DNA of 64,000 nucleotides, taken from assembly GCA_963783375.1 (NCBI GenBank), contig CAWANH010000029.1, positions 384,001 to 448,000 of the forward strand, written 5' to 3'. Both the position numbers and the translations under genes were made by a program. Origin of the DNA: Candidatus Eiseniibacteriota bacterium (GTDB lineage: Bacteria > Eisenbacteria > RBG-16-71-46 > JABDJR01). This document shows, piece by piece, positions 12,033 through 19,224 of the stretch (its first letter is position 1; the number at the start of each line of letters is the position of its first letter). Under the pieces are notes generated by a model. That model ran no database searches. It had not been told where the DNA came from and saw only the letters and a list, made by a program, of their open reading frames with translations.

Positions 12033-13070
12033 TCAGCGGTTCCAGCTGCGGTCGTCGGCCTCCTGCCCCTCACCCGGAGACCCGGCCTCCTCCGAGGGGT
12101 CGTCGGCGTCCCCGATCATCTCTCCCGGCACCTCCTCGTCGTCGTCATCCTCCTCATCATCCTCGAATTCGTCCCCGTCCTCGAAGTCGTCCTCGTCCTC
12201 GAAGTCGTCCTCCACCTCCTCGTCGTCCCCGTCCTCGAAGTCCTCGTCTTCGAAGTCCTCATCCTCCTCCAGGTAGCCCTCGTCCTCGAAGTCCCCCTCC
12301 TCGTGGTCGCTGGTCCCGTTCGATCCCCGGCCGCCCCCCAGGATCTCGCCCACCTCCGGCCGCTCCCGGTTCAGGTGCAGGACCCGGTATCCGTCGGGCC
12401 GTTGCTGCTTGAGGAGCAATCCCTCCTGGATCGCCTGGGCCACGAACTCGCGGGCCTCGTCCTCGGCCAGCCCCGGAAACTCGGTGGAGGTCGTCATGGC
12501 CGCGGAGACGTACTTGAAGGTGATAAAGGGCTTGGAACGCTCCAGGCGGTCCACGAAACGGACGAACGCGTCCCGTCGCTCGTCGTCGGCCACCGGCTCG
12601 AACTCCAGGGGCTCGAAGCTTCCGCCCGCCGCCTCGATGAGATCGTTGGACACCGAGCCCCGGACCCCCGCGATCACGACCTCCTTGCCGTAGCGGTTGC
12701 GGATCATGGTGACCATGCGGATGAAACGGCGGTCCCCGGTCATCAGGATGTAGGTGCCAAGGAACGGACGGTCGAGGAGGGTCTCGAAGATGTCCATCAA
12801 CATCTCCATGTCCGCCCCCCCCTTGGGGCGCTCGCCGACCTGGAGCGAAGCCACGTTCACCGCGCTGATTCCCGAGACCTGAAGGTCGCGTTGGACCCGC
12901 TCGGGGTGCTCCTCGAAGTCCGCATAGGATCGGGCCAGGGTCACCAGCCCGTAGCGGCGACCGATCTCCATGAGCATGGAGCCCGAGAGTTCCCGGTGAT
13001 AGGTGTTGAGCACGCTGTAGCGGATGTTCTCGAAATCGACGAAGAGGGCGACTTCACGAGGCCTATCCAT
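12033..13070 (-). CDS. NYN (LabA/DUF88, PIN-fold) domain protein with long acidic C-terminal tail
   Basis: ALFVDFENI, ARSYADF, ADMEMLMD, LMTGD, GKEVVIAG, SNDLIEAA; D/E-rich tail; GGAGG RBS. Confidence 0.8.
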   Translation of the reverse strand: MDRPREVALFVDFENIRYSVLNTYHRELSGSMLMEIGRRYGLVTLARSYADFEEHPERVQRDLQVSGISAVNVASLQVGERPKGGADMEMLMDIFETLLDRPFLGTYILMTGDRRFIRMVTMIRNRYGKEVVIAGVRGSVSNDLIEAAGGSFEPLEFEPVADDERRDAFVRFVDRLERSKPFITFKYVSAAMTTSTEFPGLAEDEAREFVAQAIQEGLLLKQQRPDGYRVLHLNRERPEVGEILGGGRGSNGTSDHEEGDFEDEGYLEEDEDFEDEDFEDGDDEEVEDDFEDEDDFEDGDEFEDDEEDDDDEEVPGEMIGDADDPSEEAGSPGEGQEADDRSWNR

Positions 13071-15630: not shown

Positions 15631-16686
15631 GTGGCCAAGGCGTCAACTTCAAAAAAGACAAAGACTTCCGCAAAGCGGAAACCCGGGGGAAGCGCGTCGG
15701 CCAAGACCCGCTCCGGGAAGTCCGGGAAATCCAAGAAGAAGGTGGCGGCAGCCTCCAAGAGGTCTGAAAAGCCCGCTTCCGCGGCGAGAAAGACCTCCAA
15801 GCAGAAGGCTTCCAGGAAGGCGACCTCCCGGCAGAAGGCGTCCAGGCCAACGGTGTCCAAGAAGACCACCTCCCGGCAGAAGACGTCCAAGCCGAAGATC
15901 TCCAAGAAAACCGCCGCGGGAGCGTCCCCGCGTCGCGCCGCCGGAACCTCCAAGAGCCGGGTTTCCGCCGCCAAGTCCGCCGCCCCGGCCCGGGGGACGA
16001 AGGCCGGCAAACCCGCGCCGAAGCCCCGGACCAAGCAACCTCAGAAGTCGGCCCCCGCCACGGCGGCCCCGGTCGCCTCGAAGAGCGCGGCCAGGAAGAA
16101 GGCGGCCGAAGCGGTGCAGAAGAGCGCATCCGGCAAGGGATCGTCCGCCCCTCCCGCCCCCGAAGCGGTCATGGTCTCCGTGGAGGACGCCATGGCCAAC
16201 CTTCCCTACGTCGAGGGGCAGTTCGTGGTGCATCCCAAGTACGGGCTGGGCCGGGTCAACCGCATCCTCGAACGGAAGCTGTCCACCCGCACCGTGCCCT
16301 GCCTGGAGATCGGTTTCTCCTACCAGGAGATGAAGCTGACCATCCCCGTGGATCAGGTCGATCGTTCCGGACTCCGGCGGCCCATCGGCAAGAAGTCCAT
16401 CGACGACGTGTTCAAGGTGCTTCGCGGCCGGGCAACCTTCGATGCCAAGCGGCGCTCGGCCAAGCGGGTGGTGGACTACCGGAAACGCCTGGGGCAGGGC
16501 GACCCCACGTCCCTGGCCGAGGCGGTCCGCGACCTGGCCCGACTCTCCCTCCGCAAATCCCTCTCCTACGAGGAACGGAAGATCCTGAGCACCGCGCTTC
16601 GCATCCTGAGCCGCGAAGTCGCCCTGGCCCGGGGGCGGGAACCGGACGACGTGCGCGAGGAGATCGAGAAAATCGTGTATCGTTGA
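15631..16686 (+). CDS. CarD/CdnL family RNA polymerase-binding regulator with long N-terminal K/S/A/P-rich (histone H1-like) region
   Basis: C-terminal GQFVVHPKYGLGRV..I, LTIPV...GLR, GD...LAE.VRDL, LS..ER..L..A..IL..E; GTG start after GGAGAAGG. Confidence 0.8.
   Translation: MAKASTSKKTKTSAKRKPGGSASAKTRSGKSGKSKKKVAAASKRSEKPASAARKTSKQKASRKATSRQKASRPTVSKKTTSRQKTSKPKISKKTAAGASPRRAAGTSKSRVSAAKSAAPARGTKAGKPAPKPRTKQPQKSAPATAAPVASKSAARKKAAEAVQKSASGKGSSAPPAPEAVMVSVEDAMANLPYVEGQFVVHPKYGLGRVNRILERKLSTRTVPCLEIGFSYQEMKLTIPVDQVDRSGLRRPIGKKSIDDVFKVLRGRATFDAKRRSAKRVVDYRKRLGQGDPTSLAEAVRDLARLSLRKSLSYEERKILSTALRILSREVALARGREPDDVREEIEKIVYR
15790..15910 (+). repeat. Imperfect coding tandem repeat, 5-aa periodicity (KTSKQKASRKATSRQKASR...KTTSRQKTSK)
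   Basis: ACCTCCCGGCAGAAG occurs twice, with related ACCTCCAAGCAGAAG and GTCCAAG units. Confidence 0.65.
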
Positions 16687-16747
16687 GGGGTCCCTGTCCG
16701 CGCCCCCGGGGCGGCGGCCGATGATCTTTCCACGAGGACCGCGCATC

Positions 16748-17758
16748 ATGACTCCTTCGCTCCCGTCCCCCTTGCCATTTCGCCTTTCCATACGTTGGAC
16801 CGTTGCTCTCGCCCTGGCCGTGACGGCGCTGCTCGGGGGGAGGGGAGGCGTCGAGGCCTCGGCGCCCGCGGACACCGCGTTCACCGCCGCTCCCCCCGAC
16901 TCCCAGTTCAGCTTTACGGTCACCCTGGCCAGCCAGACCGACAGCCGGGGTGAGCTCCGCCCCTGCACCTGACACGGGCAGCCGGTCGGGGGACTGGCTC
17001 TTCGCAGCGGGGTGTTCAAGAAGATCCGAGCCCTGCCGGGGCCCGCGGTGGTCGTGGACGGCGGAGACTTCACGCCCGGACCCGCCGATACCCTGGCGGT
17101 CGAGAAGTCGGAGCTGATGATCCGGACCATGGCCATGATGAAGTACGACGCGGTGGGGCTGGGGGAGACCGACCTCATTCGCGGGGTGGAGTATCTCGAC
17201 GAGGCCTCGAAGGTGCTCCCCCTGGTCTGCGCGAACGTGAAGCTTCCCGCCGATATCCAGGCCCGGATTCCCGCGGTGCGCTGGCTCGACGTGGAGGGGC
17301 ACCGGGTGGCGGTGACCGGCTACGTGGATCCCCTCCTCTACTACGTCTGGCCGGGGGCGTTCGGGCGGAGCCCGGACAGCCTCACCGTGATCGATCCGGT
17401 CCAGGCTCTGGCTCCCCTCATCGAGACCCTCCGCCCCCAGGCCGACCTGGTGATCGTGCTGGCCCACGGGGACAAGGACGAGATCGGGGAATGGATGAAC
17501 GGGGTGCCCCCGGTGGACGTGGTGATCCAGGGGCACGAGCCGGAGATTCCCCATGGACCGATGGAGTTCGGGAACACCTACCTGGTGCGGTCGGGCCCTC
17601 GGTCGCGGCGGGTGGCCCAGTTCGACGTGAACCTGATCGCGCCCCACCGGGTGAAGGGATTTCACTTCAAGCTCTGGGACCTGAGCAAGATCCACGACGG
17701 GGACGCCGAGGTGGACGACATCGTGAAGGCGTTCAACGCGCGACACGGTTTGCGCTGA
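16748..17758 (+). CDS. Exported UshA/5'-nucleotidase-like metallophosphoesterase, probable selenoprotein (UGA at 16970-16972 read as Sec, CxU motif)
   Basis: ORFs 16721-16972 and 17012-17758 share a frame. Joined sequence: GELRPCT[U]HGQPVGGLALR..VVDGGDF..YDAVGLGETD..VLAHG..VIQGH. Signal peptide and GAGG RBS precede; hairpin follows the UGA. Confidence 0.8.
16980..16999 (+). promoter_or_regulatory. Putative bacterial SECIS element
   Basis: 8-bp stem AGCCGGTC/GACTGGCT (one G-U) with a GGGG loop starting 15 nt after the in-frame UGA. Confidence 0.65.
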
Positions 17759-19224
17759 TGTGGGATCGTTCCGCGCTCGTGGATCTCGCCCGCCGGGGCC
17801 TCACCATCGGTCCCGGGGATCCGGGTTACGGCGCGTACCGCGGCGACGTGGTGCTGGAAGGCCGCCCCGACGCGGTGGCCCGGCCCAAGGACGAGACCGA
17901 GGTGAGGGCGATCCTGGCCGCCGCTTCGGGGGGCGGGGCGCCGGTCACCTTCGCGGGGGGACAGACCAGCCTTACCGGGGCCAGCGCGGCCGAGGAGGGG
18001 ATCCTCCTGGCCACCGAGAACCTGGACCGGCTCCTGGACATCGCGCCCGATCCCGAGACCGGGGGGATGACCGCCGTCGCGGAACCGGGGATCTTCCTGG
18101 GGGATTTCCAGCGGGCCCTGGAGCAGGAGGGCTGGCTCTACCCACCCGATCCCACCAGCCGGAACGAGGCGCGTCTCGGGGCCACCGTGGCCACGAACGC
18201 CACCGGGGAGGACACCCTCCTCTACGGGCCCACCCGCCGCTGGGTGCGCGCGCTTCGCGTGGTCACCGCGCCCGGTGAGATCCGGGAGCTTCGCCGCCCC
18301 CCCGGGAGTCGCCCCCCCGAGGAGAAGGCCACCGCGGGGTACTACGACGCCACGGACGAAATCGATCTCCTGATCGGAAGCGAGGGCACCCTGGCCGCGA
18401 TCACCCGGGTCACCGTGGACCTGATCCCGCTCCCCCCCGGCTACTTCGCCGGGCTGGCGTTCTTTCCCAGCCTGCTCGACGCGCTGACCTTCACCGTCGC
18501 CGCCCGCCGCGACCCCCGGCTCGTCCCCCGCTCCCTGGAACTCCTGGACCGCGGCTCCCTGGACCTGGTGGGGGAGAACCCGGAGGGAATCCGCTGGCCC
18601 GACGCCACCGGAGCGGCCATCGCCTTCAAGGCGGAGTACCGGGACGAGGCGGAGCGGGACCGGGCGCTGGTCGCCTGGCTCGACCTCCTGGAGACCCGTC
18701 TGGCCGCGGCGGGGGCGCCCGATCTCCTGGACCACGTGGTGGTGGCCGACGACCCGGCGGGACGGCACCGCCTCCGCGAGTTCCGCCATCGCGTTCCCGC
18801 CACCCTGAACGAGAAGGTGGCGGCCCTTCGGGAACAGGGAGGTGGGAAGGCGGGTAGCGACTGGTGGGTGCCCTACCCCCGGATCCCCGACTTCCTGGAA
18901 GGCTGGCGGCGCCGGCTGGTGGATAGCGGACTCGAGCTGATCATGTTCGGCCACATCGGAAACGGCCACCCGCACGTGAACTTCCTCCCCCGGACCGGCG
19001 AGGAGCGCGAGCGGGCGCGGAGCCTGATCCGGGAGATGTGCCGGGAAGCGGTGGCCCTGGGCGGTGGGGTGGCCGGGGAGCACGGTCTGGGAAAACTCAA
19101 GCGCGGGCTCCTGGCGGTCCAGTATCCCGAGGAACGGATCCGGGCCATGCGGGAGATCAAATCCCGGTGGGATCCGGACTGGATCCTCGGTCGCGGAAAC
19201 CTCTTCGAACCGGAGGCGGTGTGA
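17758..19224 (+). CDS. FAD-linked oxidoreductase (GlcD/D-2-hydroxyacid dehydrogenase-like)
   Basis: TGATG overlap with the upstream gene; GGQTSLTG, YPPDPTS, GSEGTLA, FGHIGNGHPHVN, GEHGLGKLK. Confidence 0.88.
   Translation: MWDRSALVDLARRGLTIGPGDPGYGAYRGDVVLEGRPDAVARPKDETEVRAILAAASGGGAPVTFAGGQTSLTGASAAEEGILLATENLDRLLDIAPDPETGGMTAVAEPGIFLGDFQRALEQEGWLYPPDPTSRNEARLGATVATNATGEDTLLYGPTRRWVRALRVVTAPGEIRELRRPPGSRPPEEKATAGYYDATDEIDLLIGSEGTLAAITRVTVDLIPLPPGYFAGLAFFPSLLDALTFTVAARRDPRLVPRSLELLDRGSLDLVGENPEGIRWPDATGAAIAFKAEYRDEAERDRALVAWLDLLETRLAAAGAPDLLDHVVVADDPAGRHRLREFRHRVPATLNEKVAALREQGGGKAGSDWWVPYPRIPDFLEGWRRRLVDSGLELIMFGHIGNGHPHVNFLPRTGEERERARSLIREMCREAVALGGGVAGEHGLGKLKRGLLAVQYPEERIRAMREIKSRWDPDWILGRGNLFEPEAV

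Follow-up and report, generated by a model that had tools for sequence, protein, structure and literature searches.

The locus and its reading frame

The window, by which we mean the whole stretch of 64,000 nucleotides that was analyzed, harbors on its forward strand an UshA-like gene that lies between carD and a gene for an FAD-linked oxidase (Table 1). Read with translation table 11, the region 16748-17758 yields two ORFs of the same frame, 16721-16972 and 17012-17758. As the first-pass annotation had stated, it is a single TGA (16970-16972) that parts them, and translating this codon as U reproduces the read-through product proposed there: U75 falls within GELRPCT-U-HGQPVGGLALR, and the metallophosphoesterase motifs DGGDF, GETD, LAHG and QGH follow further on. 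The start at 16748 was preferred over that at 16721 because a Shine-Dalgarno-like GAGGA precedes the former at a distance of 9 nt. The signal peptide that had likewise been suggested agrees with hydropathy, on which this assignment is based: the most hydrophobic 19-mer of the 336-aa protein comprises residues 13-31. Furthermore, a hydrophobic N-terminus is found in 59 of the 63 full-length CxC relatives. The protein collection holds the gene as entry P0017, which consists only of the 248-aa piece behind the TGA. No sigma-70 promoter was found for the gene, and the Rfam search gave two tRNAs as its sole matches. At the RNA level, one contig of run X15 covers 16955-17161 with 13 differences; its start lies so near the TGA that it was not taken to span this codon, nor is it evidence of expression. 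The TGA is not covered in runs X5 and X7.

The N-terminal extension of the upstream CarD protein is rich in Lys, Ser and Ala, resembles histone H1 and comprises about 165 aa. Its length varied in all six family loci checked, and it is short in L084. In myxobacterial CarD, the basic DNA-binding tails are located C-terminally. Elsewhere in the window, on the minus strand at 12036-13070, a NYN-domain protein is encoded whose long C-terminal tail is rich in Asp and Glu.

Table 1. Positions of the gene, its elements and its syntenic neighbors in the window.
Feature	Position	Strand	Basis or remark
CarD with long basic N-terminal extension, upstream syntenic neighbor	15631..16686	+	synteny
GAGGA, Shine-Dalgarno-like site	16734..16738	+	sequence; 9 nt 5' of ATG 16748
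Read-through CDS, predicted UshA-like CxU selenoprotein without heme domain	16748..17758	+	336 aa, TGA=U translation
Predicted signal peptide, approximately residues 1-37	16748..16858	+	hydropathy; hydrophobic core 13-31
Cys73-Thr-Sec75 (TGC ACC TGA)	16964..16972	+	translation, homologue alignment
SECIS candidate, 8-bp stem, GGGG loop 16988-16991	16980..16999	+	-13.8 kcal/mol; 15 nt from UGA to loop
Leu85-Arg86	17000..17005	+	Leu85 in place of the Arg whose codon is the family's usual SECIS loop; Arg86 in 31/31 aligned rows
DGGD motif	17057..17068	+	Asp107 at bridging-ligand position, kept
GETD in place of GNHE	17162..17173	+	Asn to Glu, catalytic His lost
His240	17465..17467	+	metal-2 ligand position, kept
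His263	17534..17536	+	metal-2 ligand position, kept; Pro265 in place of the second His of GHxH
FAD-linked oxidase (GlcD-like, below cut-off), downstream syntenic neighbor	17758..19224	+	ATG overlaps terminal TGA

The TGA as probable selenocysteine codon

A search of the genome for the selenocysteine (Sec) machinery, as had been advised, found selA, selB, selD and tRNA-Sec, all above their cut-offs, and selD itself contains an in-frame TGA. Relatives of the protein are encoded in 40 of 41 related genomes. The eight best matches among these genomes are syntenic orthologs, placed between carD and the FAD-linked oxidase gene, and they divide along taxonomic lines: all four genomes of the genus have TGA at the position in question, and all four of the sister genera have TGT or TGC and thus Cys. 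Since selA occurs in all eight of these genomes (39 of the 41 overall), the sister genera use Cys despite possessing selA, and Sec is dispensable at this position. Among the best 80 of 280 metagenome loci, seven contigs encode CTU, five of them at about 38-40% identity, and four are Cys orthologs. The homologue comparison called for by the first-pass annotation consequently gave Cys or TGA in this column. Of the phylum's 206 genomes, eight contain the subfamily formed by these proteins (E <= 1e-55), and all eight belong to one family; a contig search with the single protein as query returned the G002 locus only.

Other readings of the TGA were considered. It might be a true stop of a pseudogene or a split gene, and indeed TGA is the most frequent stop of this genome, closing 959 of 1489 long ORFs. 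However, TGA recurs in the same column of four genomes and seven metagenome contigs, at identities as low as about 38% and with the frame running on before and after it. Moreover, the column is otherwise Cys, and the hairpins discussed below accompany TGA but not Cys codons. A sequencing error, which would have undone the proposal, was ruled out because three other, independent genomes and the seven metagenome contigs share the TGA; in addition, run X1, which is possibly the source sample itself, spans the codon without differences. A code in which TGA means Trp, or any other altered code, was rejected because of the use of TGA as a stop and because the homologue column is Cys. Error, pseudogene and changed code are therefore unlikely explanations, a true stop or error being highly improbable, and from the sequence comparison U75 is very likely selenocysteine.

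Further likely selenoproteins of the genome (G000) were noticed among 73 coding-score candidates (C1:188832, C28:62285, C28:74499, C28:1271171 and C28:396756). They comprise SelD, two thioredoxin-like proteins (W-U-x-x-C), a peroxiredoxin-like protein (PG-U-T) and a T-U-GYC protein, the labels of all but SelD being motif-based.

A predicted hairpin unusually close to the UGA

The 8-bp stem with a GGGG loop that had been described behind the UGA folds as stated (Table 1). Judged against shuffled sequences, its energy gave z = -2.75 in a 25-nt window (3/200 shuffles), but -0.75 in a 48-nt and -0.81 in a 61-nt window, and a stretch of 91 nt adopts a different fold (z = +0.6). By energy alone the hairpin is hence not beyond chance, and its support comes from comparison across homologues. 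The bacterial SECIS model, as given in PMC13188914, demands a loop of 3-9 nt, a stem of 4-16 bp, a G in the first two loop positions and a minimum free energy of at most -7.5; with four loop nucleotides, all G, eight base pairs and -13.8 the hairpin lies inside these limits. Its distance from the UGA is less ordinary. The spacing between UGA and apical loop is put at 16-37 nt in PMC13188914 and PMC10778597. Here the loop starts, with its first G, at base 16 after 15 intervening bases, so that the relation to this range hinges on the counting convention: the spacing either coincides with its lower limit or falls one short of it.

In the family at large the hairpin sits elsewhere. Usually it is formed by the codons of G-L-A-R-R-A and exposes a GG(A/C) loop 28 nt past the UGA, or 25 nt where one codon is missing. 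The subfamily has A-L-R at this position and the usual stem is present in none of its 16 rows. We tallied both sites over rows de-duplicated over 48 nt, scoring for the 15-nt site stems of 5 bp or more that enclose a loop beginning with G. Among subfamily Sec rows, the hairpin occurs at the 15-nt site in 7/8 and at the family site in 0/8, whereas subfamily Cys rows have it at neither (0/8 each). The remaining Sec rows of the family show the reverse (15-nt site 0/46, family site 40/46), and the remaining Cys rows reach 1/42 at either site; these counts are to be read with the provisos that the 15-nt site was defined from the gene itself and that the rows are kin. Compared with the rest of the family, the predicted hairpin of the gene is thus 13 bases nearer to the UGA, and one segment, GA-CUG-GC, is the 5' arm of the family hairpin and the 3' arm of the subfamily hairpin.

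Within the subfamily, the distant Sec orthologs differ in the stem by one compensatory pair (G-C to A-U), probably a single event, and by one change from G-U to A-U. The covariation score of 0.196 was reached in 6 of 500 shuffles and is the best of all slid registers; the register of the hairpin is paired to 90.6%, compared with at most 48% for slid ones. One locus (L077) carries a mismatch in the hairpin. Synonymous conservation by itself was not significant (22/26 vs. 280/421), a value equalled by 17 of 141 other windows. Taken together, the comparison suggests that the hairpin is likely to be the element bound by SelB-tRNA-Sec. In the mostly open-access literature searched, no relocation of a SECIS within a family was found. 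The relocated, short-spaced SECIS candidate is therefore the new element of this gene, the rest of which belongs to a catalogued family.

Strong folding (-18.5 kcal/mol) was also seen in a Cys-coded ortholog (L031, from genome G007), whose hairpin exposes a GGGGA loop at 14 nt. This hairpin may be a SECIS remnant of the kind that is known to persist after a change from Sec to Cys (PMC1794560), or it may have arisen by chance in GC-rich DNA.

How the subfamily came to its hairpin can be framed in two ways: either the hairpin moved in a lineage that retained Sec, or Sec was regained from Cys together with a new hairpin. In a quick tree the metagenome Sec lineage branches first (support 88). A more careful tree, built from 26 of 60 rows after masking of the motif columns, supports the subfamily with 100/99 and leaves its base open, and a single Sec clade is compatible with the data (p-AU 0.425). 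We lean slightly toward Sec having been kept, since the outgroups share both Sec and the U-H sequence, and since the possible remnant occurs in G007.

Fold and metal site

The structure model, computed from a 31-row alignment, is of high confidence (pLDDT 92.7) and comprises the N-terminal 5'-nucleotidase domain only; the CxU loop has the lowest internal confidence of the model (71-78). A single-sequence model of a heme-bearing paralog reached pLDDT 34 and was left out. The fold search returned TMq 0.85 and TMt 0.50. In a further structural comparison, 2z1a aligned over 274 residues (Z 33.0, rmsd 2.2) and SoxB (2wdc) over 272 (Z 29.6, rmsd 2.8). The C-terminal substrate-binding (nucleotidase) domain had been reported missing, and accordingly Pfam gave no match to it and TMt is about 0.5.

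The notion of an altered metal site was borne out by alignment as well. The roles of the residues (dimetal ligands, catalytic His) are those which we take to apply in UshA and CD73, and they were checked by conservation in the non-CxC rows. The His67, Asn140, His141 and His265 positions are all replaced in the protein, and the catalytic His and the metal-1 ligands are gone. The catalytic His is missing in 22/22 subfamily rows and Arg86 is present in as many. In contrast, Asp107, Glu/Asp140, His240 and His263 are all retained in 9/9 Sec rows and 11/13 Cys rows of the subfamily; two of the 13 Cys rows have lost metal-2 ligands. This pattern extends to the wider family. Of the canonical hydrolase residues we scored five (Asp and His of DxH, Asn and His of GNH, and the final H/Q of GHxH) in 217 domains of the 150 best representatives, leaving out 93 without motif coverage: all 83 CxC domains keep at most two of the five, compared with four or five in 35 of the 41 covered non-CxC domains. 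Invariance of CxC/U within alignment A1 is partly by construction, as part of it was chosen by a CxC/U regular expression. Half of the metal site thus probably survives, and because the catalytic His and the metal-1 ligands are lost and the four metal-2 ligands kept, the protein is, on sequence grounds, probably not a nucleotidase.

It might still have retained hydrolase activity at a rebuilt site with one metal, be it as a thiosulfohydrolase akin to SoxB or as a phosphodiesterase that employs Sec as nucleophile. SoxB (TIGR04486) is the third-best NCBIfam match and gives the structural Z quoted above, the four ligand positions and Arg86 are conserved, and heme-bearing paralogs are located 5' of cystathionine beta-synthase/gamma-lyase-type genes in three genomes. 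However, the SoxB score of 49.5 bits is far below the cut-off of 550, and the structural scores of nucleotidases equal or exceed that of SoxB. Considering further the loss of the catalytic His throughout the subfamily and of the substrate-binding domain, we regard such a hydrolase as rather unlikely.

The loop also allows a different interpretation, in which the Cys-Sec bond is structural or regulatory and the domain, without catalysis of its own, is a scaffold for binding a further envelope protein. Cys73 is aligned with a Cys of the equivalent loop of CD73, which we take to form a structural disulfide there, and Sec and Cys swap freely within the subfamily. Nevertheless, keeping Sec and apparently rebuilding a hairpin would be a high price for a structural bond. 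Moreover, most of the known Sec residues take part in catalysis (PMC1794560). This makes the structural role improbable, and a redox function of the Cys-Thr-Sec loop is preferred.

Placement among known families

A group labelled 'COG0737, UshA-like, CxU' has been tabulated since 2008, with 76 Sec sequences in GOS alone (PMC2398784), and again in two reviews (PMC9312934, PMC13188914). In the mostly open-access literature searched, we found table entries only and no functional study of this family. The protein has the feature by which the group is recognized, CxU in an UshA-like domain. Its best NCBIfam match is NF041198 (UshA_like_PCGU; E 1.5e-27), with which it shares the N-terminal 5'-nucleotidase-like domain, P-C-x-U followed by GG-L-x-x-R, and the hydrophobic N-terminus. 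However, it reaches 96.4 bits, below the cut-off of 275, and differs in having PCTU instead of PCGU, ALR instead of ARR and a SECIS candidate at 15 instead of 25-28 nt. In addition, it lacks the tetraheme c554 domain: the C-terminal multiheme region of the model, at positions of about 349-518, corresponds to the c554 part of P0023, whereas here the ORF ends 262 codons past Sec and contains no CxxCH. The mature part of the heme paralog, for comparison, scores 270.9 bits against NF041198. The second family, NF049981 (UshA-like (seleno)protein family 2), which comes next among the Sec models, is likewise a short UshA-like selenoprotein model of 262 positions, but the match is below its cut-off (E 6e-11, 42.3 vs. 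140 bits), and its motif is listed as CxxU, not CxU, in PMC13188914. Thus the gene belongs to the UshA-like CxU group in the sense of the literature, presumably functions in the same way, and is not an equivalog of NF041198 or NF049981.

With UshA, CD73, NadN and SoxB the protein has the N-terminal metallophosphoesterase fold and the positions of Asp107, His240 and His263 in common. It deviates from them by DSR for DxH, GETD for GNHE and GHEP for GHxH, as well as by the absence of a C-terminal domain and an identity of only about 20%. A more distant parallel is MccSep/ExtKL of Geobacter sulfurreducens (NF040886), which is periplasmic and has an in-frame UGA as well. MccSep is described as a periplasmic multiheme polysulfide reductase with Sec in sulfur redox (PMC13510729), so such chemistry exists, and the analogy concerns mainly the heme-fused relatives. 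The fold is a different one, though, and MccSep has five hemes and a Cys-ligated heme site, in contrast to the protein described here. No NF040886 member above cut-off was found in the genome.

Fusion partners, paralogs and neighbors

Among 80 CxC representatives, 48 are of the stand-alone form, so that the absence of heme alone is not new, and 18 carry at least three CxxCH motifs. Another 14 are longer with fewer than three CxxCH; of these, three have an AhpC/TlpA domain, three a DsbA/Trx domain above cut-off and one a c554 domain, and none contains 5_nucleotid_C. In three proteins (P0002-P0004) two CxC domains and c554 are joined in one chain. The fusions of relatives to c554, TlpA and DsbA domains suggest, with about even odds, periplasmic thiol/selenol redox chemistry. 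The genome encodes a DsbD/CcdA membrane domain as well as c554 domains. The neighbors CarD, FAD oxidase, TPR and Lon suggest no redox partner. A stand-alone c554 ORF (C29:1473411-1474001) was considered as partner and rejected, as it sits among cytochrome-like ORFs and has no link to the gene.

According to a competing explanation, Cys73 and Sec75 would coordinate a metal or metalloid, either in place of the metal-1 ligands or as a site for a soft ion (Cu, Hg, As), in a protein of periplasmic binding, delivery or sensing. Indeed, where CxC/U has been gained, the catalytic His and the metal-1 ligands have disappeared, and the motif lies 6-8 residues past the DxH position. CU-motif selenoproteins of metal biochemistry, namely SaoL, HgcA and MbdU, are also listed in PMC13188914. 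On the other hand, the fusion partners are electron-transfer and thioredoxin domains, no metal-resistance genes were seen among the neighbors examined, and the loop is modelled with lower confidence than the core. Metal binding by the loop is therefore a less probable role than redox chemistry, yet the strongest of the competing functions.

Four paralogous loci were found in the genome; Sec with four CxxCH occurs twice, once with a frameshifted duplicate, and one locus is a heme-less Cys form. At G000:C29:1230191-1232741 (minus strand; L022), a heme-less Cys paralog (SCGC) and a Sec + c554 paralog follow each other in tandem, directly 5' of a cystathionine gamma-synthase/lyase gene; in G004 and G006, cystathionine beta-synthase and lyase come after the heme form. 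The second Sec + c554 paralog (G000:C25:2687-4060, minus strand) is convergent with msrP, and its near-identical frameshifted copy at C28:827632 (minus strand) is possibly an assembly duplicate. At two loci that are not syntenic with the window (L078, L081), three small ORFs lie about 1.2 kb 5' of a Sec ortholog; they appear DsrE/F-like by eye and gave no NCBIfam match at 1e-10.

Proposed working

We propose that the gene encodes an exported selenoprotein in which a nucleotidase-shaped domain without the hydrolase residues would serve periplasmic thiol/selenol redox chemistry via its Cys-Thr-Sec loop, a reading to which we assign a probability of roughly 0.5. SelB-tRNA-Sec would bind the GGGG-loop hairpin 15 nt 3' of the UGA, upon which Sec would be inserted. 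The protein is then very likely exported and its signal peptide cleaved. The remaining ligands might hold one metal ion and, together with Arg86, bind an anionic substrate of the sulfur or oxyanion type, a step which we consider possible but somewhat less than evenly balanced. Slightly better placed is the assumption that Cys73 and Sec75 would cycle between selenenylsulfide and thiol/selenol, with electrons supplied in trans by a c554 tetraheme or by a DsbD-fed thioredoxin of the TlpA/DsbA type, partners which are fused in relatives.

A more far-reaching picture, which we consider less likely than not, combines both halves of this study. The SECIS would have migrated within the gene, such that the Gly-Leu-Ala codons of the family's 5' arm now form the 3' arm, 13 nt nearer to the UGA; it would operate at the short end of the known spacings, and an Arg codon would be freed. 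The protein itself, a pseudo-nucleotidase equipped with a single metal ion and a Cys-x-Sec pair, would represent the catalytic module of a periplasmic redox class yet to be characterized, reduced to its minimum and free of heme.

As a first consequence, the annotation needs to be corrected, since databases carry only the fragment after the TGA, which lacks both signal peptide and motif. The family is large and catalogued, and a heme-free member of about 300 aa with natural Cys orthologs, for which no Sec machinery is needed, offers the easiest assay route to the function of the domain. The subfamily moreover represents a natural experiment on SECIS geometry, in which one SelB would read hairpins at 15 nt in the gene and at 28 nt in its paralogs. 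Thus the lower limit of bacterial SECIS spacing can be put to the test, and genes of this kind might escape SECIS filters that require >=16 nt.
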